44,240 bases of DNA from Anaeromyxobacter sp. Its GTDB lineage: Bacteria; Myxococcota; Myxococcia; Myxococcales; Anaeromyxobacteraceae. Made by a program: the position numbers and the translations under genes. The stretch lies in contig JASGJN010000003.1 of NCBI GenBank assembly GCA_049840735.1, positions 1 through 44,240 of the forward strand. Direction: 5' to 3'. This document shows, one piece after another, positions 12,679-44,240 of the stretch (position 1 is its first letter; each line of letters starts with the position of its first letter). Under the pieces are notes generated by a model that saw nothing but the letters and a program-made list of their open reading frames with translations, searched no databases and had not been told where the DNA came from.

Positions 12679-13271
12679 CGCTCCCCCCGCCCGGACGGCG
12701 CGCCCTCGCCCGCCGGCTCCAGGGCCTCCGCCGCCTCCACCAGCGCCAGCGTGTGCGCGCGCACGTCCTTCGGCCAGCCCCGCACCAGCCGGCGCAGCCG
12801 CTCGCCGTCGCCCGCGTAGAGCGCCCGCGAGGCCTCCTCGAAGCCCGGCAGGTCCCCGCCCATGGCCCACATGAACTTCCCCGCCGCCTCGCGCGCCCGG
12901 CGGGCCCGGGCCTTGTCCGGCTCGCGCCGCCGCGCCTCGTCCACCAGCCGGCGCAGCGCCGCCGAGATCCCGCCGCGCTGCTCCTCCAGCCACTCCCAGT
13001 GACGCGGCAGGAGCGAGATCTCGCGGCTGACCACCCCCAGCCGTGGCCGCCCCGGCCCCGCCCTCTCCCGCCCCTCCGCCCGCGCCACCACCTCCTCCGG
13101 CGTGCCGCGCAGGTCGAAGTCCACCTGCCGCCCGGTGGCGTCCTCGAAGATGAGCAGCCCCTCCGCCGGCGCCGCCGCCTTCACCGCCAGCAGCACCTCG
13201 CGCCGCGAGCCGCTCGCCAGTCGCCTGTGGCCCACGAAGGCCGTGTAGCTGTCGTCCATGGAGGCTCCCAT
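12675..13271 (-). CDS. DUF2239 family protein
   Basis: YTAFVGHRRLASG, FEDATGRQVDFDLRG, GRPRLGVVSREISLLPRHWEWL, GDLPGFEEASRALY. Start could also be 13259. Confidence 0.85.
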   Translation of the reverse strand: MGASMDDSYTAFVGHRRLASGSRREVLLAVKAAAPAEGLLIFEDATGRQVDFDLRGTPEEVVARAEGRERAGPGRPRLGVVSREISLLPRHWEWLEEQRGGISAALRRLVDEARRREPDKARARRAREAAGKFMWAMGGDLPGFEEASRALYAGDGERLRRLVRGWPKDVRAHTLALVEAAEALEPAGEGAPSGRGER

Positions 13272-13429: not shown

Positions 13430-13790
13430 CGCAAGTCCCGGAGCGCCGGAGGACGGTCGCGGAGCGAGGACAATCCGAGCGAAGCGGCCGGCCGCAGGCG
13501 CGGAGGGACGACGCCGAAAGCCGCTCGCAGGAGGTGCTCGCCTTCGACTCCGCGCCCGCTCGCGGGCGCTACGCTCAGGCTGACCGGGGCCGCTGGCGCG
13601 AAGGGACGCACGCCGAAAGCTCCACAAGGACCGCCTGGCCTTCGACTCCGCGCCCGCTCGCGGGCGCTACGCTCAGGCTGACCGGGGCCGCTGGCGCGAA
13701 GGGACGCACGCCGAAAGCTCCACGAGGACCGCCTGGCCTTCGACTCCGCCGCCACTGCCCGGCGGCTACGGCCAGGCCGAACGGTGCCAG
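13430..13790 (+). repeat. REP-like cluster with a 98-bp tandem duplication
   Basis: CCTTCGACTCCGC starts at 13541, 13639 and 13737 (period 98). The first two units differ by one base, each carries a GC hairpin, and upstream modules are shared with 1578-1903. Confidence 0.85.
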
Positions 13791-13862: not shown

Positions 13863-14330
13863 TCAGGCCGGCACGTCGACGGCCAGATCCCCCGCGTCCA
13901 CCGGCAGCACCGCCGCGTTCTCCTCGGCCCAGCGCGCCGCCGCGCCGTTGAGCGGGCTCTTCACGTTGTAGCTCTGGAACGCGATCATCTCGGCGATGCG
14001 CCCGATGACCGTGGCCAGCGACTGCCCCGCGCTCCAGTGGTCGCCGATGCAGATCGCGTGCGGCGCGATGTTGGGGTGGAAGACCGGCGTGAGCATCCGG
14101 CACTGCGGCGCCTGCCGCGGGTACCCCAGCGTCAGGAAGATCTCCACCACGTGGGCGTCCTTCTGCACCACCGCCCCGTCCTGCATCACCAGCCCGCGCA
14201 CGCCCAGCTCGACCCGGTAGCGCTCCGGCGGCTCGCCCACCGCCTCGAGCAGCTTGAAGCGCGGGTGACCCTCCAGCCACCGCCGGATCATCTCCTCGTC
14301 GGCCCGGAGCCGCCTCAGCCGCACGCTCAT
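13863..14330 (-). CDS. Ubiquitin-conjugating enzyme E2 (UBC fold), 155 aa
   Basis: RLRRL N-helix, GYPRQAP, TPVFHPNI (HPN triad), ICI catalytic Cys, downstream Trp and SPLNGAAA. ATGA overlap with the upstream gene, GAGGAGG RBS. Confidence 0.9.
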   Translation of the reverse strand: MSVRLRRLRADEEMIRRWLEGHPRFKLLEAVGEPPERYRVELGVRGLVMQDGAVVQKDAHVVEIFLTLGYPRQAPQCRMLTPVFHPNIAPHAICIGDHWSAGQSLATVIGRIAEMIAFQSYNVKSPLNGAAARWAEENAAVLPVDAGDLAVDVPA

Positions 14331-15343
14331 CTCGCCTCCTCGTCCCGGAGGTCCAGCGGCGCCCCGCAGGGCGAGCCGGCCTCCCGGAGCAGCGCGGCCA
14401 CGTCGGCCGCCGCGATCGCGAACCCCATCCCCTCGGCCACGCCCCGCCCCGCCGTCCAGGTGTTGAGCCCCACCAGCCGGCCCTGGACGTCGTAGAGGCC
14501 GCCGCCGCTGTTGCCCGGGTTGATGGAGGCCTGGACCTGCAGGATGCGCGCCCCCCGCCCCTGGCGGACCGCCGAGAGCACACCCGTGGTGAACGAGGCC
14601 TCGTAGCCCAGCGGGTTGCCCACCGCGAAGACCCCCTCGCCCACGTGCGGCAGGCCCGCAGCCCGCACGGGCACCGGCTCCGGGGCGCCCCTCGCCTCCA
14701 CCCGCACCACCGCCACGTCCAGCCCCTCCGGCCCCATCCAGCAGACCTTGGCCGGCCGCTGCTCCACGTCCTGCAGCGTGGCCGCGGTCAGCGCGCGGCC
14801 ATCGCCGCAGCTGACCACGTGCCGGTTGGTGAGCGCGACGTAGGCGCCCGCCTCGCGCCGGACCACCACCGCCGAGCCCAGCCCCGCCTCGTCGCTCCCC
14901 TGGCACCTCAGCACCACGTTGGCCCGCAGGGCGCGCCGCACGTGCGGCTCGGCGTCCTCCACGCCGCCCACCGCGCGCGAGGACCAGATCCCCGCCGCCG
15001 CCGGGCCCGGGCTGTCCTCGCCGGCGGAAGGGCGGCCCAGCACGTAGGCCACGCCCCCCACCCAGCCCACCAGCGCGATGCTGCCCAGCACCACCCCCGC
15101 CACCGCCAGCCCCGTGCCCTTCAGGTCGGCGCGCACCTGCAGCGCCCGGAGCGCCAGGATCCCGCAGCCGATGGCCACCGGCCCGAGCACGAAGCCCACC
15201 AGCGGCAGCGCCAGCGCCCCCAGCACCAGGGCGGCCACCGCCAGGTGGCTGGTGCGCGGCGGGCGCTCCGGCGCGGCGCCCGGCACCACGGCGCTGGCCA
15301 CCTCCTCGGGCGTGATGCGCAGCGGCGGGTCGAAGGGCGCCAT
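14327..15343 (-). CDS. DUF4190-anchored trypsin-like (HtrA-type, PDZ-less) serine protease
   Basis: N-terminal TM module (LAVAALVLG..GPVAIGCG..KGTGLAVAGVVLG); triad LTNRHVV / LDVAVV / INPGNSGG; VGNPLG. Confidence 0.88.
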   Translation of the reverse strand: MAPFDPPLRITPEEVASAVVPGAAPERPPRTSHLAVAALVLGALALPLVGFVLGPVAIGCGILALRALQVRADLKGTGLAVAGVVLGSIALVGWVGGVAYVLGRPSAGEDSPGPAAAGIWSSRAVGGVEDAEPHVRRALRANVVLRCQGSDEAGLGSAVVVRREAGAYVALTNRHVVSCGDGRALTAATLQDVEQRPAKVCWMGPEGLDVAVVRVEARGAPEPVPVRAAGLPHVGEGVFAVGNPLGYEASFTTGVLSAVRQGRGARILQVQASINPGNSGGGLYDVQGRLVGLNTWTAGRGVAEGMGFAIAAADVAALLREAGSPCGAPLDLRDEEAR

Positions 15344-15353
15344 GCGCGATCCC

Positions 15354-15927
15354 CTACCCCACCGCCGAGACGATCAGCGCCGCGAGCGTGGTGGCGCTGC
15401 CCGCCACCAGCCCCAGGACCGCCAGCACGCGCCAGGTGGCCTGCCACCGGCGGACCGCCTTCCAACGCACCGCCAGCCAGAATCCCGCCCACCACCAGCG
15501 CCAGCGGGGCCGTGACCGGGAAGACCCCGGCCGCGAAGAGCGCCAGCGCCGCCGCGCGCCCCTCCGGCGCGGCCGGCCGCCCCACCACCGGGGCCGCGTC
15601 CGGCGCCGCCGAGGTGAAGGTGAGGCCGCAGTGGCGGCAGCGGATGGCCGCCACCTTGATGCGCTGGCGGCACATCGGGCAGGTCTTCTCCTCCTGCCCC
15701 CAGTAGCTGGCCGCCGTGGCCGGCTGCTCCTTCAGCGTCTCCGGCGTGAGGGCGCAGCCGTAGGCCGCGCAGCCGCCGTTCTCCGACCAGCACTCGCCGT
15801 GATAGGGCGCCTGGCACTCCGGGCAGCGGCCCACCTCGTCGAGCTGCGCGATGGCCGTCTGGCAGATGGCGCAGGTGGCCCCCACGTCCGGTCCCTGGGC
15901 CGCGCCGACCTCGAGCGGGGACGCCAT
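15354..15927 (-). CDS. Prokaryotic RING (Prok-RING_1-like) + zinc ribbon + TM protein, putative E3; +1 frameshift at ~15481
   Basis: CAIC-x12-CPEC-x3-YHGECW-x3-GGCAAYGC, then CPMC-x10-CRHC. Removing one base gives a TM tail (..GGIWLAVRW..VLAVLGLVAG..SAVG*), 190 aa. TGATG overlap with the upstream gene. Confidence 0.82.
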
Positions 15928-17263
15928 CACGCCTCCTTCACGGTGAAGGAGAGGATGGTCTTGCCGATCCGGATCTCGGTCACCGGCCTCCAGCCGCTTG
16001 CGGCGCACCGCCCGGCCGTTCACCACCGTGCGGCCAGCGCCGCCCTTGTCCTCCAGCTCGTACCCCTCGCCCACCACGTGGATGAGCGCGTGGACCGGCT
16101 CCACCTCGGCGTCCTTGAAGAGGTAGATGTCGGCCTTGGGGCTGCTGCCGATGGTGGTGGGGTTCTTGAAGAGCACGAACTCCTTCCCCGCCAGCGGCCC
16201 GGCCTGCATCTTGAGCCAGGCGTCGCGGGCCAGCAGCTCGACCACGCCGATCATCAGGCCCGTGGTGAGGCCGATGACGGTGAAGCCCACCGCGCGGCTC
16301 AGGTCGCCGCCGTGCAGGCCGTTCGCGTTCACCAGCCGGTCGATCGGGGTCGAACAGCAGGCCGCCCAGCAGCGCGCCCACCACCCCGCCCAGCAGCCCG
16401 TTCAGCACCATGCGGCGGGAGCGCAGCGCCAGCCCCTGCCCGACGCCCATGCCGCAGCCGACCGCCGCCCAGGCGGTGGCGCGCGCCGTCATCTGGGCCA
16501 GGAAGCCGGCCACCGTGAGCCCCTCGTCGCCGCGGAAGCCCTCCACCACCTTCTGGCCGAGCCCGTAGAGCAGCTCGGCCAGCATGTCGCCCACCAGCCC
16601 CAGCCCCAGGCCCGCCGCCAGCCCCACCACCGCGCAGAGCGCGGCGCGCCGCCAGGCGCGGGAGATGAGGCCGTCCGCCAGCGCCACGAACAGGCCGATC
16701 AGCGCGGCGACCACCGGGAAGACCAGCGCCGACAGGAGCCGGTCGCGGAGGAGCAGCGCGCGCAGCGAGAGCTGCCCCTCCGGCGCCGGGGAGGCGAGCA
16801 CGTCCACCTCGTAGGCCACCAGGCGCCCCACCCCTTCCTCGTCCTCCGATCCCTGCGCGCGGACGCGGACGTGCGCGGCGACCTGCAGGTCGGTCAGCGC
16901 GATGGGCGCGCCCTCCTGCCGGAGCTGCGTCCGCCCGGGGACGACCAGGACCTCGATCCCGCTCACGTCCAGGGCGACCCGCTCCCCGTCGCCCACGTCG
17001 GAGACCGACTCCACCTTCCCGTCCACCACCAGGCCATCGTCGAAGAACGGCTCGATGATGGCCCAGCCCGCCGCCCCGCCCAGCGCGCCGGCGATCATGA
17101 GCGCGAACCAGGGGCGGTACCAGAGCGGCGTCTTCGCGTCCGGCGCCTTCGGCGGCGGCGCCGCCATGCCGAAGGAGAGCTGGCGCGCCAGCGCGTCGTC
17201 GACCTCGGGCCGGTACAGCTCGGCCTCGTCGATGGAGAGCTTCCCGGTGGCCTGCGGGTCCAT
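15927..17263 (-). CDS. Multi-pass membrane protein with C-terminal FHA-fold domain; +1 frameshifts at ~16346 and ~15976
   Basis: Gly-rich TM repeats (GALGGAAGW, GGVVGALLGG), a small soluble beta-rich insert, then GPLAGKEF..TTIGS..DIYL..VEPVHALI..VNG..LEAGD-I-IGKT. GAGGTGG RBS before ATG 17263. Confidence 0.78.
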
Positions 17264-17270
17264 GTCCACC

Positions 17271-18464
17271 TCACCTGTTCCGGAGCACCAGCCACCACGC
17301 GGCGCCGCCCAGCGCGGCCGCCCCGGCCAGCCCCAGGCCGGCGAACATCAGCAGCCGCAGGACCGCCTTCCGCTCCTGCGCCTCCTCCTGCGCGCGCTTC
17401 TCCCGCTCGGCCGTCGCCTGCTCGGAGGGCTTCAAGGCGGTGGAGAGGTCCTGGAGCAGCGTCAGCCCGTTCTGCGGCAGGACCAGCACCGGGCGCAGCG
17501 TGCCCTGCGCGTCCCGCGCCACCCCGCCGCCCTGCGGGTCCAGCACCTCGAGCGGCACGCCCACCATGCTCCCCGTGCCCGGGTCCGCCGCCACCACCAC
17601 CACCGGCCCGGCGGGGCGCTCGGCGCCGCCGCCCAGGCCGATCCCGCGGCCCCCGCCCATCACCAGCAGCAGCACCGCCCCGACCGCCACCACCCAGGGC
17701 AGCAGCGCGCCCAGCGCGCCGCGGCCGCCGCCGTCCTCCGCGACCCTCGCCAGCGCCAGCGCGGCGCGCTCCAGCGCGGCCGCCCCCGCCCCGTCGCCGC
17801 CGGCCGCGACCGGCGCAGCCTTCGGCTTCGGCGGCTCGGCGTCGGGCTGGCGCGTGGCCGGCCGGCGCTCGCGCCCGGCCAGCCAGTAGCGGCGCACCGG
17901 CTCCAGCTTCCCGCCCTCGCCGCGGTGGAAGAAGGCCTCGCTCCCGGCCAGCGGGTCGTAGACGTAGGCCAGGTGGTGCGGCCCGGAGAAGAAGTTGTCG
18001 TGGACGAAGGTGTCCATCTCGGAGAGGAAGACGCCGAAGCCGCCGTGGGTGTGGTACCAGCCCACGATCTCGGCCTCCGGGAAGCGGCGGTCCAGCTCCT
18101 GGTGGATGTGGTTCCAGGTCTCGTGGGTGAAGGTGACGGCCGTGCCCTCCTGGCGCGCCTCCTTCCCGGCGATGGCCGCGGTCACGTGCACGAACGGTCC
18201 GTGCTCGTCCTCGCCCACCCGCCCCACCAGCACGCCGCAGACCTCGACGTCCGGCTCGACGATGGCGTGGCCGATGACCTCGGCGTAGGGGACCTTGTCC
18301 ACCGCCACCCGCAGCTCGCCCGGCTCGGGCGCGCGGCTGCCGCCCGGGAACGGCGGCCCGCCCTTGCGGGCCTTCGCCTGCTGCGGCGCCTCGGCCTCCG
18401 CCGCGTCCTTCACCGGCGCCGCCTGCGGCGCCCTGGCCTGCTCCGCCTTCGCCTTCTTGCTCAC
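17271..18464 (-). CDS. JAB/MPN+ (JAMM) metallopeptidase with two C-terminal TM segments, putative DUB
   Basis: EVCGVLVG (catalytic Glu) and VGWYHTHGGFGVFLSEMD (H-x-H-x7-S-x2-D). The GTG start overlaps the E1 stop; GGGGAGGGG RBS. Confidence 0.9.
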   Translation of the reverse strand: MSKKAKAEQARAPQAAPVKDAAEAEAPQQAKARKGGPPFPGGSRAPEPGELRVAVDKVPYAEVIGHAIVEPDVEVCGVLVGRVGEDEHGPFVHVTAAIAGKEARQEGTAVTFTHETWNHIHQELDRRFPEAEIVGWYHTHGGFGVFLSEMDTFVHDNFFSGPHHLAYVYDPLAGSEAFFHRGEGGKLEPVRRYWLAGRERRPATRQPDAEPPKPKAAPVAAGGDGAGAAALERAALALARVAEDGGGRGALGALLPWVVAVGAVLLLVMGGGRGIGLGGGAERPAGPVVVVAADPGTGSMVGVPLEVLDPQGGGVARDAQGTLRPVLVLPQNGLTLLQDLSTALKPSEQATAEREKRAQEEAQERKAVLRLLMFAGLGLAGAAALGGAAWWLVLRNR

Positions 18465-19642
18465 GTTCCCCTCCCCGTGTCGCCGGCCTCGGCGCACCCC
18501 AGCACCGCCGGCCGGTCACCGCCCAGCTCGAACCCGATGGACCGCTCCCCGGCCCGCCCGCAGACCACGTCCCAGGGCGGCACGCCCAGCTCGGCCAGCG
18601 AGCGGTCCAGGAAGTCCTCGCTGCCGTCCAGCCCGTGGTAGAGCCGCGGCGCGCGCCGCGCCCCGCACCCCGGGCAGACCGCGTGGTCCTCGCCCACCGA
18701 CGCCAGCGGCCGCAGCAGCCGCTCCGAGGCGCCGCAGCCCGGGCAGTCGAAGCCGCCCAGCAGCTCGCGCGCGAACTCCAGCACCGCCCTGGGCCCCAGC
18801 GCCTCGCGGGCCCAGCCCAGCGCCTCGCCGGCGCGGACCCCGGCCGCCCCGCGGTCCACCACCTCGATCCGCTCCAGCGGGTCGTGGCTCAGGCAGTCCG
18901 GGTTGCGCACGTACTCGGTCAGGTAGGACTGATGGTGGAGCCCCTCGAACACGTAGCCCTGGCCGCTCAGCGTGGGCTGGCCGTGCAGCAGCTTCACCGC
19001 CTCCTGGGCCTGCACGCCGGCCACGATGGAGGCCACCGTGGGCGTGGTCGGCACCTGGCCGAAGGCCTGCAGGTCGCGGTTGAGCAGGCTGCAGGAGTGG
19101 CGCTGCGCCAGCGCTTGCCAGTCCGCTTCACCCAGCGTGCATTCGTAGCAGGCCCCCTCCGGCGGCATGAAGACGCGCGCCACGCCGGAGAGCACGTCGA
19201 TGCCGCCGTCCACGAAGGGCCGGCCCACCCGGTAGCAGGCCCGGTTGACCGCCAGGCGGGCCTCGCGGTTGTCGAGCGCCCCCAGCACCACGTCGGCCCA
19301 GCGGAACAGCCCCAGCCCCACGCCGTGCACCACGTCGCCGCGGATGGGCTGGGCGCGCAGGCCCGGGTAGAGGTCGCGGGCCGCCCGCGCCGCCACCGCC
19401 GCCTTGTCCTGGCCGGCGTCGGCGCTGCGGAACAGCACCGAGCGGGAGAGGTTGGAGTGCTCGATGGCGTCGAAGTCGATCACCACCACCGACCCGACGC
19501 CGAGCAGCGCCAGGTTCTTGAGCAGCTCGTTCCCCAGCGCGCCGGCCCCCACCACCACGGCGCGGGCGCGGGCCAGCCGGGCCTGGTCCCACCAGGAGAT
19601 GAGGCCGAACCGGGCGAAGCGCTCGTCGGCCGCGCCGCTCAC
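18461..19642 (-). CDS. ThiF/E1-like ubiquitin-activating enzyme with C-terminal Zn-ribbon extension
   Basis: VGAGALG, DFDAIEHSNLSR, LDNREAR, CYEC, RHSC (candidate catalytic Cys), NPDCLSH and two CPGCG motifs. Confidence 0.92.
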   Translation of the reverse strand: MSGAADERFARFGLISWWDQARLARARAVVVGAGALGNELLKNLALLGVGSVVVIDFDAIEHSNLSRSVLFRSADAGQDKAAVAARAARDLYPGLRAQPIRGDVVHGVGLGLFRWADVVLGALDNREARLAVNRACYRVGRPFVDGGIDVLSGVARVFMPPEGACYECTLGEADWQALAQRHSCSLLNRDLQAFGQVPTTPTVASIVAGVQAQEAVKLLHGQPTLSGQGYVFEGLHHQSYLTEYVRNPDCLSHDPLERIEVVDRGAAGVRAGEALGWAREALGPRAVLEFARELLGGFDCPGCGASERLLRPLASVGEDHAVCPGCGARRAPRLYHGLDGSEDFLDRSLAELGVPPWDVVCGRAGERSIGFELGGDRPAVLGCAEAGDTGRGT

Positions 19643-19917
19643 CGGCGCGCCCCGGCGGTGATCTCCGGCTGCAGCCGCAGCACGTCGCCGGGCTGGACGC
19701 CGGCCTCCTTCAGCGACTGGTGATCGAGCAGCTGGCGGCCGCTCGCCTTGTGGTGGAACTTGTAGCTCATGAGCTGGCCGTCGGGGCTCTGCCGCGGCAG
19801 CTTCATCTTCTCCACCAGCACCACCAGCACCCGGTTGACTGGGGCCTCGTCCGGGACCTCCACGTCCTGCCGCTTGCTGCCGGTGGCGTCCCAGACCTGC
19901 ACGGTGATCGTTCCCAT
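19639..19917 (-). CDS. Ubiquitin-like beta-grasp protein (YukD/EsaB-like), 92 aa, C-terminus EITAG-ARR
   Basis: ITVQV..KRQDVEV..helix..GRQL..SLKEAGVQPGDVLRL matches the ubiquitin-fold pattern (ubiquitin GKQL..TLSDYNIQKESTLHL). GAGGGGG RBS; the stop overlaps the E1 GTG. Confidence 0.85.
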   Translation of the reverse strand: MGTITVQVWDATGSKRQDVEVPDEAPVNRVLVVLVEKMKLPRQSPDGQLMSYKFHHKASGRQLLDHQSLKEAGVQPGDVLRLQPEITAGARR

Positions 19918-19928
19918 CGTGTTCCCCC

Positions 19929-20363
19929 TCAGCCGACCGCGTTGATCAGGACCCGGATCACCAGCACCGCCGACAGGATGCCGTTCACCACCAGCGCGAT
20001 GGTGGGCAGCAGCGCCCCGGTGCCCCGGGCCCGGTCCCGGTCGATGATCGAGGTCGCGAGGCCGCCCAGGGCCAGCCCGATGAGCAGGAACCCCAGCACC
20101 ATCAGGCCGAACTTGCCCTCGCCCTGGACCATCGTGCCGCCGAAGACCATGACCAGGGTCCAGAGGACCGCGAGGCCCAGGCCGACCAGGCCCCGCGGCA
20201 GCGCGCCGTCGCTGGGCCTCGGCCCGCCGTCGGCCACGCAGCCCGGGCAGAGCAGCAGCGCCCCGACGGCGAAGGTGCAGAGCTCGCAGCAGAGCCGGCC
20301 GCAGTGACCGCACCGCGAGTGGACCAGGTTCTGCGCGTGGAAGGAGCAGCTGGGCGTGGTCAT
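19929..20363 (-). CDS. B-box-like zinc finger membrane protein
   Basis: CSFH-x8-CGHC-x3-CCELC-x9-CPGC followed by ~3 TM segments. Confidence 0.75.
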   Translation of the reverse strand: MTTPSCSFHAQNLVHSRCGHCGRLCCELCTFAVGALLLCPGCVADGGPRPSDGALPRGLVGLGLAVLWTLVMVFGGTMVQGEGKFGLMVLGFLLIGLALGGLATSIIDRDRARGTGALLPTIALVVNGILSAVLVIRVLINAVG

Positions 20364-20384
20364 GTGCGCGCTCGCGGCAGGAGA

Positions 20385-20780
20385 TCAGCGGTTGAACGTG
20401 GAGAACAGGCTCAGGGCGCCGATCAGCAGGCCGAAGATGGAGACCGTCAGCGCGGCGTCGGCGTAGCCCTTGCCGCCCAGCGCCGGGTCCGCCTGGATGC
20501 GCCGCCGCGCCTCGAGCGCCTTGGCGATGGCGATGGGCTCCAGGATCAGGGTCAGCCAGCAGCCGAAGCCGAAGAGCCCGCCCAGCGCGAACCAGAGGGC
20601 CTGCTTGGCCTCGGGCAGGTCGACGGTGGGCACCACGCGGATGTTGGCGATCGCCAGCTGCTTGCACGAGGCGCAGTAGCCGGTGCCGCCCACGACCACC
20701 AGGCAGCTGTCGCAGAAGCCCTCGGCGCATCCGGCGCAGGCGCCGGCCGAGGCCGTCCCCGCATGCTTGTGGCAGTCCAT
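20385..20780 (-). CDS. B-box-like zinc finger + DUF4190-like membrane protein
   Basis: CHKH-x8-CAGC-x4-CDSC-x9-CASC, then a TM module with PIAIAKA..RRI..GKGYA. GGGGGAG RBS. Confidence 0.78.
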   Translation of the reverse strand: MDCHKHAGTASAGACAGCAEGFCDSCLVVVGGTGYCASCKQLAIANIRVVPTVDLPEAKQALWFALGGLFGFGCWLTLILEPIAIAKALEARRRIQADPALGGKGYADAALTVSIFGLLIGALSLFSTFNR

Positions 20781-39070: not shown

Positions 39071-40040
39071 GTGAATCCCGCTCGCCGCCTCGCCCCGCTC
39101 CTGACGGTCCTCCTCGTCGCCGCCTGCGGCCCGGCCACCTCCGACCTGGCCACCGCTGGCGGCGCCGGTGGCGGAGGTGGCGGCGGCGGTGGCGGTGGCG
39201 GGGGTGGCACCGGCGGCGGTCCGGCCACCGTGCCGGCCTGGCCCGAGCGCTCGGTGCTGGCGCTCACCAACGCGGTGCGGATGTCGCCCGCGCACTGGAA
39301 GGCCCGCTGGTCGGGCGGGAGCCTGGGCACGGGCGTGATGGACGGCTACGCGGCGGTAGCGCCGCTGCGCTGGAACGCCGGCCTGGGCACCTCGGCCGAG
39401 GCGCACTCGCAGGACATGGCCAGCACGCCCTGCTTCTCCCACGACTCCTGCGACGGGACCGGCTGGGCCACCCGCATCCACGCCACGTACAGCAACGGCA
39501 CCATCGGCGAGAACATCGCGGCCGGCTACGGCGACCCCGAGGCGGTGATGCTGGGCTGGATTCTGCGACGCCAGCGGCGGCAGCTGCTGCGCCGACGGCG
39601 CCAGCTGCGACGGCCACCGCCGCAACCTCATGGCCGGCGGCTACCGCGAGCTGGGCGTGGGCTGGGCCCAGGTCTCGGGCAGCCCCTACGGCCAGTACTG
39701 GACCCAGGACTTCGGCGGCGGCGCCTCCGCCGAGACCTCGCCGCTCCTCGACGCCAGCCACCTGCTCCGGACCGGCAGCACCATCCGCTTCCTGGCCAAC
39801 GTCTCCGCCGCCGCCGCGCCGCAGTCGGTGACGCTGGTGCTGGACGGCGCGGCCCAGGCCATGTCGGTGGCGCTTGGCAGCGCGGCGCAGGGGACGCGCG
39901 CCGTCGATTTCGCGCGCGCCTCGGGCTGCCGCAGCTACCACGTCGAGCTGGTGGACGCGGGCGGCACCAGCTGGCGCTACCCGGGCACGGGCGAGCTGCA
40001 CACGTATGGTGAAGGCGGGTGCACGCTGGACCTGCCGTGA
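39071..40040 (+). CDS. CAP/SCP-domain lipoprotein; +1 frameshift at ~39561
   Basis: Lipobox VAAC, Gly linker, LTNAVR, PLRWN, AEAHSQDM, FSHDS, GENIAAG, GHRRNLM, YWTQDFG. Confidence 0.85.
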
Positions 40041-40122
40041 GCGGTCTCGTGGAGCAGCTCCGCCAGCGCCAACCCGGGCGCCGCGTGCCATGCCCACACC
40101 GCTCCGCGGGGAGGGACACGAA

Positions 40123-40615
40123 ATGGAAGCGCACGAGGCGTTGAAGAAGTGCCCGATGTGCGGTGAGGAGATCCTCGCCGTGGCGATCAAGTGCAAGCAC
40201 TGCGGCGAGCGCCTGGACCTTCCTCACCGGAAGCGGCTGCCGTCGCTCTCACCCGAGCAGCGGAAGAAGCTCGTACTGGCTGCGGCGGTGGTGCTCGTTG
40301 CGGCAGCTCTCGGTGGACTGGGGTGGCTCGTCTACGCACGTGTGCCCGAGACGAAGTTCTGGGTCTCGGTGCACAAGGATGTTGAGTGGCACCGGGACTG
40401 GCAGGACGCTCGCGTGAGGAACGACCGCACTCGAGTCGGCGACATCTATCGCGAGCTGTCCGCTGCCCACCCAGATGACGGGGACCTCGAGTATCTCGCC
40501 CTCCGCGCACTGCCTGACGGCGAGAAGAAGCTGGAGGAACTAGATGAGGCGGCCAAGAGGTTCGACAAGAACGCCTGGGTACTTTACGGGCTTGCTGAGG
40601 CCGAGGAGCAGGCCG
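40123..40615 (+). CDS. Zinc-ribbon + TM protein, truncated by the junction at ~40615
   Basis: CPMCGEEILAVAIKCKHCG, a TM segment and the start of a TPR-like helix; GAGGG RBS. The downstream sequence belongs to a different locus. Confidence 0.65.
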
Positions 40616-40653
40616 CGGCGACCGAAGTATCGAGTTCATCTTCAATCTCTCCC

Positions 40654-41857
<1,204 letters not shown>

Positions 41858-41990
41858 CCAGCCTCTCCTTCAGTTCAGTTGCAGATAGCCACCTGTTGAC
41901 GCGAGCGGCAAGCGCAATTTCCCGGTGGACGAGGTGGCTGGTCGGTGTATTGGCACGGTTCCTCCCCGCTCATGCTGAATGGAGTTGTGC

Positions 41991-44125
41991 GTGTCCGGAG
42001 GTTTCACCGATCGTCATGGGTTGCAGGTCGCGGACGAGCTGGCCGACTTCATCGAGGAGCGGGCGCTGCCGGGCACCGGCATTTCGGCCGACGCCTTCTG
42101 GGCAGGCGCGGCCGACATCTACGCGCGGTTCACCCCCGAGAACGCAGCGCTGCTCGCAAAGCGCGACGACCTTCAGGCGAAGATCGACGACTGGCACCGG
42201 GCGCCGCACGGCCAGCCGCATCGACATGGCGGCCTATCAGGCGTTTCTCGAGCGAGATCGGCTATCTGGTGCCCGAGCCCGCGCCCTTCCGGATCGGCCC
42301 CGGCCAACGTCGATCCCGAGATCGCGACGACCGCCGGGGCCGCAGCTTGTCGTGCCGGTGCTCAACGCCCGCTTCCTGCTCAACGCCGCCAATGCGCGCT
42401 GGGGCAGCCTCTACGACGCGCTCTACGGCACCGACGCGATCGCCGGCGCGCGCCGCCGGCCAAGGGCTATGATCGCGGCGCGCGGCGCGCAGGTGATCGC
42501 CTGGGCCAAGGCCTTCCTCGACGAGGCCGTGCCCGCTTGCATCGGGCAAGCTGGGCCGACTTGACGGGCGGTGACACTCGTGCTCGCCGATCCGTCGCAG
42601 TTCGTCGGGCGCGCCGGGCGACAATCTCCTGTTCCGGCACAACGGTCTGCACATCGAGCTGGTGATCGACCGCGACCCATCCCGATCGGCTCGGACCGAC
42701 CCGGCGGGGATCGCCGACGTCATCCTCGAAGCGGCGCTCGACCACGATCTGCGACCTTGAGGACTTCGATCGCGGCGGTCGACGCGCGAGGACAAGATCG
42801 CGGCCTATGCCAACTGGCTCGGCCTGATGCAGCGGCGATCTTGAGGAGACGTTCGAGAAGGGCGGTCGGCATGATCACGCGCCTGCTCGGACCCCGACCG
42901 CGCGCTATACCGCCCCCGACGGCGCCAGCTTCACTCTGCCACGGCCGCAGCCTGCTGCTCGTGCGCAATGTCGGCCACCTGATGACAACTCCGGCGGTCC
43001 GCTTGTCCGATGGCAGCGGAAGCGCCCGAAGGTATCCTCGACGCGATCGTCACCAGCCTGATCGCGCTGCACGACTTCAAGGGCCTCGCACTCCAACAGC
43101 CGCGGCGGGCTCGATCTATATCGTCAAGCCGAAGATGCATGGGCCGGAGGAAGCCGCCTTCACCAACCGCCTGTTCGACGCGGTCGAGGATCTGCTGGGC
43201 CTTGCCCGCCACACCATCAAGATCGGCGTGATGGACGAGGAGCGGCGCACCTCCGCCAACCTCGCCGCCTGCATCGATGCGGTGAAGGACCGGATCGTCT
43301 TCATCAACACCGGCTTCCTCGATCGCACCGGCGACGAGATGCACACCTCGATGCACGCCGGCCCGATGATCCGCAAGGGCGAGATGAAGACGAGCCGACT
43401 GGATCGACGCCTATGAGGATCGCAACGTCCAGATCGGCCTCGCCTGCGGCCTGTCCGGGCAAGGCGCAGATCGGCAAGGGCATGTGGGCCGCGCCCGACC
43501 GGATGGCCGACATGCTCGACGCAGAAGATCGGCCATCCGATGACCGGGCGCCAACACCGCCTGGGTGCCCCTCGCCGACCGCCGCGACGCTGCACGCGAC
43601 CCACTATCACCAGGTCGACGTGCTTCGCCCGCCAGGCCGAGCGCAAGGCCGAGCCGGTCGCCGGCCGCTCGACGCGCTGCTGACGATTCCGCTTGCGGCC
43701 GGCGCGCAACTGGTCGGCCGCAGGAGATCGCGCGACGAGCTCGACAACAATGCGCAGGGCATCCTCGGCTATGTCGTGCGCTGGATCGACCAGGGCGTCG
43801 GCTGCTCCAAGGTGCCGGACATCCACGATGTCGGCCTGATGGAGGACCGCGCGACCCTGCGCATCTCGTCGCAGCATATCGCCAACTGGCTGCTCCACGG
43901 CGTCGTGCACGCGAGCGACGAGGTCGACGCCGCGCTCAGCGCGGATGGCCGCGAAGGTCGATGCGCAGAATGCCGGCGATCCGCTCTACCGGCCCGATGG
44001 CCGGACGAGCCGGACGGCATCGCCTTCCAGGCCGCGCGCGCGCTGGTGTTCGAGGGGGCGGCGCAGCCCAACGGCTATACCGAGCCGCTGCTGCACCGGT
44101 TCCGGCGAAGGCGAAAACACGCTGA
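41991..44125 (+). CDS. glcB: Malate synthase G, many indels (raw-read quality)
   Basis: [97 protein letters not shown]. Confidence 0.9.
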
Positions 44126-44179
44126 GCCAAGTCATTTGGACAAATGGACAGCCCGATCGCTGATTGCGATGCGGAGAAT

Positions 44180-44240
44180 AGGTGCTGTTCGGATTCGATT
44201 CCCATTACCTTAGCAACACCAACCGAACGAAGACACATAG
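44180..44240 (-). other. Residual Oxford Nanopore native barcode + adapter (technical sequence)
   Basis: AGGTGCTG-[TTCGGATTC..TTCCC]-TTACCTT-AGCAACACCAACCGAACGAAG resembles the reverse-complemented ONT flank AGGTGCTG..TTAACCTT and adapter AGCAATACGTAACTGAACGAAG (recalled from memory). Confidence 0.8.

Follow-up and report, generated by a model that had tools for sequence, protein, structure and literature searches.

A predicted membrane-anchored ubiquitin-like conjugation operon with a RING protein and a candidate docking motif in Anaeromyxobacter

The operon and its conservation

We analysed a stretch of 44,240 nucleotides from Anaeromyxobacter sp. (assembly GCA_049840735.1, contig JASGJN010000003.1, positions 1 to 44,240), hereafter the window, which carries an operon for a ubiquitin-like protein (Ubl) together with a predicted activating enzyme (E1), conjugating enzyme (E2), candidate RING ligase (E3) and JAMM metallopeptidase. 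Nine co-oriented genes occupy positions 13863-20780 of the minus strand and run head to tail from 20780 to 13863. As the initial annotation had described, four junctions overlap (GTGA, GTGA, TGATG, ATGA), the remaining gaps are short (21, 11, 7 and 10 bp, within the 7-21 bp given there) and six of the nine products contain hydrophobic, presumably membrane-spanning, segments. Pfam assigns seven of the nine products above cut-off: YukD (5.7e-12), ThiF (2.7e-51), JAB (2.7e-12), FHA (1.1e-9), Prok-RING_1 (3.3e-13), DUF4190 with Trypsin_2 (9.1e-26) and UQ_con (3.3e-10). Together with the conserved catalytic residues described below, these matches bear out the intact Ubl, E1, HPN-type E2, RING and JAMM motifs reported earlier. 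No Rfam match and no sigma-70-like promoter was found between positions 13200 and 21100. The features are as follows ('long' loci are defined below).

20385-20780, minus strand: B-box-like Cys/His zinc finger with a DUF4190-like membrane hairpin, 131 aa; accessory, in 5 of 28 long loci; DUF4190 match 5.8e-5, under the cut-off
19929-20363, minus strand: B-box-like zinc finger with three membrane segments, 144 aa; accessory, in 4 of 28 long loci
19639-19917, minus strand: YukD-family Ubl, 92-aa precursor; invariant Ala-Gly89, then a three-residue tail
18461-19642, minus strand: E1; adenylation domain, C184 as candidate catalytic residue, zinc site C165/C168/C250/H253, and at the C-terminus a domain that aligns with the UBA3/UBA1 ubiquitin-fold domain
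17271-18464, minus strand: JAMM metallopeptidase (E74, H138, H140, S148, D151) with a membrane anchor and a variable C-terminal part
15927-17263, minus strand: transmembrane FHA protein (TM-FHA), polytopic, C-terminal FHA fold without phosphothreonine-binding residues; frame switches near 16345 and 15975
17213-17242, minus strand: weak copy of the shared docking motif at the TM-FHA N-terminus, 6.4 bits, below the 8.4-bit joint threshold
15354-15927, minus strand: RING protein; Prok-RING_1, zinc ribbon and two membrane segments; C4HC3 ligands C19, C22, C35, C38, H43, C46, C53, C58; frame switch near 15490
14327-15343, minus strand: protease; DUF4190 membrane anchor and HtrA/DegS-like trypsin domain (H175, D209, S279), no PDZ domain; protease domain predicted outside the cytoplasm
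15296-15325, minus strand: strong copy of the shared docking motif, protease residues 7-16, 19 bits
13863-14330, minus strand: E2; HPN at 85-87, catalytic C94, second invariant Cys77

The motifs merit the description 'intact', but in this assembly two of the reading frames do not, a point on which the initial annotation was silent: the TM-FHA gene switches frame twice and the RING gene once. In the relatives L001-L004 and L124-L127, each is a single open reading frame (ORF). We therefore surveyed frame switches using 189 ORFs of a complete genome of the same genus as queries. Of the 96 with close matches in this assembly, 14 switched frame (18 events, 0.17 per kb as a lower bound), including genes that we take, from their sequences, to be gyrB-like and ileS-like. 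Frame switches thus affect conserved genes outside the operon as well, and the relatives are intact; the three switches are probably assembly errors. Were they real, the operon of this strain would be decaying. The count of three events in 6.9 kb, where the assembly-wide rate predicts about 1.2 (P = 0.11), and a decayed-looking operon remnant in another genome (G056) point that way. However, GC content at third codon positions stays near 1.0 throughout all frame-switched pieces, no premature stops occur and every catalytic residue is retained, and we consider decay improbable. In the assemblies of L005 and L006, the operon switches frame at different sites (Ubl, E1), the pattern that assembly errors would produce.

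The host genome (6.67 Mb, ~74% GC, 94% complete) belongs where the initial annotation had placed it, the nearest named homologues of the operon proteins being from Myxococcota; further named relatives come from Acidobacteriota, Planctomycetota and Verrucomicrobiota. The operon E2 was detected in 5 of 362 other genomes of the host order, in 0 of 36 of its own genus, in 4 of 32 of one genus and in 5 of 400 genomes sampled from the phylum (~1%). Databases hold 2,409 E2 clusters and 2,369 Ubl clusters of the family, mostly under wrong labels (MoeB, YukD). Cultured hosts include Myxococcus stipitatus DSM 14675 (Ubl, E1 and E2 are AGC46684, AGC46685 and AGC46690), Pyxidicoccus species and Edaphobacter aggregans DSM 19364.

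To judge the conservation of gene order that the initial annotation had proposed to survey, we assembled 91 E2-bearing loci, six retrieved by E1 and the remainder by E2, with a few near duplicates among them; 28 of the loci, with at least 6.5 kb upstream, are called long. Among the long loci, Ubl was present in 25, E1 in 26, JAMM, TM-FHA and RING in 27 each and the protease in 24; two of the loci with missing genes are cut by locus ends and a third, L123, is a remnant. The order Ubl-E1-JAMM-TM-FHA-RING-E2 is kept in 25 of the 25 long loci that reach the Ubl, and all nine genes recur in L124-L127, four genomes from the same taxonomic order as the host. RING copy number varies from one to four, and accessory membrane genes (CD225, TM2, GYF_2, DUF2752, Yip1) turn over. 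A DUF2752 gene lies in or directly after the operon in eight loci (L004, L048, L064, L068, L069, L071, L090, L107), and GYF_2, TM2, CD225 and Yip1 membrane proteins occur in others. In L123 (G056, 1398-2243), an E2 preceded by just part of a protease gene is likely an operon remnant; no Ubl was found in the G056 genome (97% complete). An E1 search of 60 relatives returned only partial ThiF/MoeB-like matches.

The predicted conjugation machinery

All 119 of the best Ubl homologues carry the motif E-[IVL]-T-A-G; 0-21 unconserved residues come after it, and seven homologues end at the Gly. Among the locus copies it is found in 25 of 26, the exception being frame-switched. The window Ubl does not stop at the Gly, since three further residues follow its Ala-Gly. 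Because Ala-Gly is invariant and the tail is not, the tail of the window Ubl, judged from these alignments, must be removed. In their own systems, BilC and archaeal Rpn11 trim Ubl precursor tails (PMC10557695, PMC5654768; here and throughout, cited papers are represented by their accessible parts). The Ubl had no sequence match in the PDB. Natural Ubl-E1 fusions occur in L070 (302-1795) and L086 (2340-3815) and keep the Ala-Gly site in the linker, from which the JAMM enzyme would have to release the Ubl. The JAMM motif, a Glu and H-x-H-x7-S-x2-D, is conserved at 90% or more of 32 copies.

In the E1, C165, C168, C184 and C250 are found in 26 of 26 copies. Its closest PDB sequence matches are UBA7, UBA1, SAE2 and UBA3, ahead of MoeB/ThiF. 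The E1 model (predicted local distance difference test, pLDDT, 88.6) aligns to UBA3 over residues 4-375 (Z 29.7, root-mean-square deviation (rmsd) 7.6, 318 aligned) and to UBA1 over residues 3-375 (Z 26.7, rmsd 5.9, 314 aligned). The top structural match, MoeB (Z 32.6, rmsd 1.6, 231 aligned), tells against a dedicated E1, but it covers the core only. Since the alignments to UBA3 and UBA1 extend out to residue 375, a C-terminal E2-recruiting domain is well supported by the model. Position and invariance mark C184 as the probable catalytic Cys. The protein thus combines a nucleotide-binding core, a conserved crossover-loop Cys and a predicted E2-recruiting domain, the features of canonical E1s.

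The E2 carries HPN and C94 in 90 of 90 copies, its nearest solved relatives being UBE2C and UBC13; with HPN preceding the catalytic Cys and with C-terminal helices, it has the make-up of a canonical (UBC) E2. Cys77 is as invariant as Cys94 (90/90) and may be structural or a second reactive site. The E2s of L048, L066, L081, L090, L099 and L117 end in long Cys-rich repeats, others end in a zinc ribbon, and tetratricopeptide repeats occur on some database homologues.

The MoeB/ThiF-like core of the E1, together with the YukD/EsaB label that Pfam and other databases give the Ubl, would also suit a sulfur carrier or an unconjugated adaptor of type VII secretion, and YukD does bind FHA domains in the type VIIb system (PMC12637312). 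We regard this reading as very improbable. The E1 scores far below the ThiF/MoeB equivalog cut-offs, carries an additional domain at its C-terminus and is encoded alongside an E2 and a JAMM protein, and no cofactor genes lie nearby; the equivalog score, cofactor genes and lack of an E2 that would define a ThiS/MoaD carrier are therefore all wanting. No WXG100 protein, the substrate expected of YukD/EsaB-type secretion, was found in any of five genomes (the host, at 94% completeness, and four operon-bearing relatives), which argues against type VII secretion.

The RING protein has seven invariant zinc ligands and an eighth conserved at 90% or more (123 rows), with PF14446 above cut-off; the ligand pattern is C4HC3, with a single spacing in 81 of 99 copies. 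The RING model (pLDDT 87.3) has RING domains as its top fold matches (Z 4-6; best Z 5.7, rmsd 2.0, 44 aligned), the HRD1 RING being among the best (Z 4.7, rmsd 2.5, 47 aligned). When the E2 and the RING were modelled together, the pair scored 0.67, compared to 0.00 for the best of three controls, with runs agreeing on at least 95% of contacts and partner pLDDT of at least 86. A mark of 0.67 is reached by 116 of 157 solved complexes and by 2 of 215 mismatched pairs, counts that are only roughly valid here. In the model, the RING sits on the usual E3 face of the E2, where it touches helix 1 and two loops (69-74 and 97-104). These loops correspond to those mutated in an archaeal cascade (PMC5654768).

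Several observations weigh against an E3 function. The fold match is middling, with PHD and C1 domains close below (Z 3.5-3.8), and Foldseek with the RING model returned nothing under E 0.001. The C4HC3 ligand pattern is also found in PHD fingers. RING E3s have a basic linchpin residue after the last zinc ligand; here that position is R or K in only 18 of 98 RINGs and Ala in the window. Since RING-E2 pairs are well represented among solved structures, the success of the E2-RING model may reflect likeness rather than binding. Prok-RING_1 might then be a PHD/C1-like adaptor and the E2 might select targets itself, as in Bil. The very short ligand spacing and the zinc-ribbon-only membrane proteins found beside the RING in some relatives would suit such an adaptor, as would the unconserved linchpin and the weak fold scores. 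Its retention in 27 of 28 long loci, the RING identity of its top fold matches and its placement on the E3-binding face of the E2 would not, and we hold the adaptor to be an outside chance. Conjugation through a RING is, in our judgement, highly likely.

Membrane partners and a shared candidate docking motif

The protease is HtrA/DegS-like without a PDZ domain, and its triad is intact in 56 of 56 copies. In 27 of 42 protease ORFs lying wholly inside a locus, an N-terminal RING is fused to the protease (Pfam confirms three), a fusion that ties the protease to the cascade. Flanking charges in 46 protease ORFs (K+R 2.4, 2.8 and 1.3) suggest that the N-terminus and loop lie inside and the protease domain outside. 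Two points tell against the scheme proposed below: the window protease has no fused RING, RING and protease being adjacent genes, and the topology rests on a charge count, which is a heuristic.

FHA domains that bind phosphothreonine have an Arg after a conserved Gly, the Ser of S-x-x-H and the Asn of N-G-T. Among 41 family sequences checked, the Arg was present in 1, the Ser in 0 and the Asn in 3. A phospho-signalling role was therefore rejected, and this family-wide absence points to a protein-binding module rather than a phosphopeptide reader. The binding of YukD by FHA domains in the type VIIb system (PMC12637312) is a lead only. The protein Atlas gave no usable match for the N-terminal part of TM-FHA. 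Of the FHA and B-box membrane proteins named in the initial annotation, the FHA fold and the membrane segments stand, but the B-box label is weak: the two B-box-like proteins have no Pfam B-box match, only Atlas leads (0.86-0.87), and both genes are accessory.

A ten-residue motif, with the consensus [KRD]-I-[RVK]-I-[TS]-x-[DE]-[ED]-[LV], is shared by the TM-FHA N-terminus and the cytoplasmic linker of the protease, and is followed by a capped helix. With detection set above the 95th percentile of flanking proteins, a profile built from one class found 20 of 21 members of the other and the reverse profile 25 of 27; shuffled sequences passed at 4% and 7%. The motif stands directly after the RING in 24 of 27 protease-fused RINGs and also occurs in some E1 and E2 tails. 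A scan of the host genome yielded four sites reaching 17 bits, one being the operon protease, and no convincing partner outside the operon. Strong copies are present near the N-termini of operon-internal proteins without a Pfam match in L081 (5578-7083), L086 (4982-6472) and L112 (7821-8225).

We compared the net charge of the motif with that of the other operon proteins. Across 24 loci (a small set, with first-match motif picking and one tree), motif charge varies inversely with the charge of Ubl strand beta-2: independent contrasts give r -0.68 at a permutation p of 0.00035, and the sign is opposite in 9 of 12 non-zero contrasts. The most negative nine-residue Ubl window is beta-2 itself (-0.76). 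The rest of the Ubl, E1, E2 and FHA showed no such relation: windows reaching -0.5 numbered 0 of 342 in E1, 0 of 82 in FHA and 5 of 132 in E2, and Ubl helix 1 alone did not covary (r -0.14). As none of the 82 FHA windows covaries, we do not favour the FHA domain as the partner of the motif. Two findings count against the scheme proposed below: the motif follows the RING in 0 of 59 RING-zinc-ribbon copies, the subtype of the window, and the window TM-FHA copy is weak. On balance, the covariation leads us to think that the motif probably binds the Ubl. Its predicted partner surface appears to be the beta-2/alpha-1 edge of the beta-grasp fold, in the manner of a SUMO-interacting motif (SIM). The arrangement resembles SUMO E3s that carry SIMs.

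Proposed role and comparison with known systems

There is good support for the tri-enzyme, membrane-anchored cascade put forward in the initial annotation: gene order is conserved, the catalytic residues are invariant, the E1 ends in an E2-recruiting domain, and the RING pairs with the E2 in a model. We propose, at a probability of about 0.5, that the cascade operates as a reversible, SUMO-like switch for membrane assembly or signalling at the cytoplasmic face of the inner membrane, and not in proteasomal degradation. JAMM would first clip the Ubl tail and expose Gly89, as its invariance and the precedents of BilC and archaeal Rpn11 suggest. From their residues and folds, the E1 would adenylate the Ubl, hold it on C184 and pass it to C94 of the E2. 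The membrane RING, bound to the E2 as modelled, would steer the Ubl onto lysines of targets bound to the membrane, the operon's own products probably among them. The strand-plus-helix motif of the protease and TM-FHA would engage the beta-2 edge of the Ubl, whether to hold the donor Ubl in place on the E2 or to bring tagged proteins together, and JAMM would finally remove the tag. As for the input, a cue from the envelope, sensed through the outward-facing protease and loops, might be the most plausible candidate. More tentatively, the outward HtrA-like protease, joined to a RING E3 in the cytoplasm and to a Ubl-binding motif resembling a SIM, could form a transmembrane receptor-ligase, with the pseudo-FHA membrane protein reading the tag; that such a receptor-ligase forms one chain, and in the window two adjacent chains, is equally tentative. 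If true, bacteria would possess a full write-read-erase Ubl signalling circuit with its own co-evolving docking code, independent of the proteasome.

Three roles had been offered in the initial annotation: ERAD-like (endoplasmic-reticulum-associated degradation) disposal of membrane proteins, envelope-stress signalling and anti-phage defence. Envelope signalling fits best, with a likelihood we place just short of even. For disposal, the tag would mark damaged membrane proteins for FtsH, Clp or the operon protease. The membrane RING with HRD1 among its best fold matches, the intact protease triad in 24 of 28 loci and the company that related tri-ligase systems keep with FtsH (PMC7159879) would agree with quality control of this kind. 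However, neither a proteasome alpha subunit nor a Pup ligase was found in any of the five genomes, which argues against proteasomal disposal; the core has no AAA+ unfoldase; and presence in ~1% of the phylum sample fits housekeeping poorly. We consider this role unlikely.

The same chemistry could instead serve defence against phage or attacking cells, the membrane proteins sensing entry and the tag being put on invader proteins, as in Bil. The very patchy E2, the variable RING copy number and the changing accessory genes speak for it, the Bil and CBASS (cyclic oligonucleotide-based antiphage signalling) systems are defensive (PMC10557695), and patchy spread with accessory-gene turnover is, at the level of gene content, a resemblance to conflict systems. 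The surroundings, though, show no clear defence island: only 11 of 138 flanking proteins (of 163 called; no control set) match PADLOC at 1e-10, mostly through generic domains, and the window flanks hold ordinary transport and metabolic genes. Operon GC is 75.2% versus 74.6%, no E2 match was found in plasmids or phages, and the core has no effector domain. Defence thus seems possible but doubtful. The reversible signalling switch is favoured over defence by tagging invaders, with which it overlaps, and more strongly over degradation.

Elsewhere in the window, the E2 gene is closely followed, at 13537-13764, by two 98-nt tandem copies and a partial third; with ~220 blastn matches on 19 contigs to its first half, the unit looks like a REP-type (repetitive extragenic palindromic) genomic repeat. 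GC falls to ~68% from ~40000 to 44240, where the genes closest to the end of the contig appear to be in fragments. A zinc-ribbon membrane protein at 40123-40815 resembles the second domain of the RING gene.

Burroughs, Iyer and Aravind reportedly described, in 2011, bacterial tri-ligase Ubl operons with prokaryotic RING fingers (Pfam PF14446). RING-containing bacterial operons have been predicted and are rare, and the present one, as the initial annotation had placed it, belongs to this largely untested kind: like the 2011-type operons, it unites Ubl, E1, E2, JAB and Prok-RING_1 in one sporadically spread operon (PMC10557695, PMC7159879, PMC3417536, PMC5654768), conserved in 25-27 of 28 long loci. 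We found no bench test of such operons in the openly accessible literature searched, and the 2011 figures and supplements may already show the gene set. The accessible parts of PMC11354881 and PMC3791482 hold nothing on this operon family, and neither the shared motif nor the pseudo-FHA nor the fusion of RING and protease is mentioned in the literature searched. Added here are the invariant Ala-Gly with a disposable Ubl tail, the FHA without phospho-binding residues, the RING-protease fusion of relatives and the covarying motif.

The closest reconstituted relative is the Ub/E1/E2/small RING/Rpn11 operon of Caldiarchaeum subterraneum (PMC5654768), which shares the three-step cascade, the single-chain E1, the HPN-type E2, a JAMM enzyme maturing a tailed precursor and a RING on E2 loops 4 and 7 (modelled only in the window). 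That system is archaeal and soluble, with a di-Gly ubiquitin and a RING-H2, whereas the window has a YukD-family Ubl ending in Ala-Gly, a C4HC3 RING, membrane anchors on the E3 and the deubiquitinase, protease and FHA partners, and no proteasome that we could find. BilABCD and Bub likewise combine a bacterial Ubl, E1, E2 and JAMM, with the precursor cut after a conserved Gly, but differ in their diverged E2s (CEHH, or Ser/oxyester), their gene order and, in the accessible parts of the sources, the lack of an E3, as the initial annotation had stated (PMC10557695, PMC11601596, PMC11601603). Measured against published definitions (PMC10557695, PMC11601596), the operon has neither the family-specific E2 nor the gene order of Bil, Bub or CBASS Cap2-Cap3, and unlike them carries a candidate E3; PADLOC gave weak partial matches for the E1 only and none for Ubl, E2 or JAMM. 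The docking motif shares with SIMs a short hydrophobic strand with a charged flank (PMC12687455); it is followed by a capped helix, is bacterial and is, from its sequence, a candidate binder. In type VIIb secretion, a YukD-family Ubl is likewise paired with an FHA-bearing membrane protein (YukD-YukB), there as a structural assembly factor (PMC12637312); in the window, it comes with a full conjugation kit and no WXG100 protein. As far as the accessible sources go, the characterised bacterial conjugation systems work without an E3, and the one prokaryotic RING cascade that they report as reconstituted comes from an archaeon. Three features, namely the receptor-like fusion, the pseudo-FHA and the motif that covaries with the Ubl, mark a variant worth testing, and cultured hosts and named residues make bacterial RING E3s and Ubl-reader motifs directly testable.

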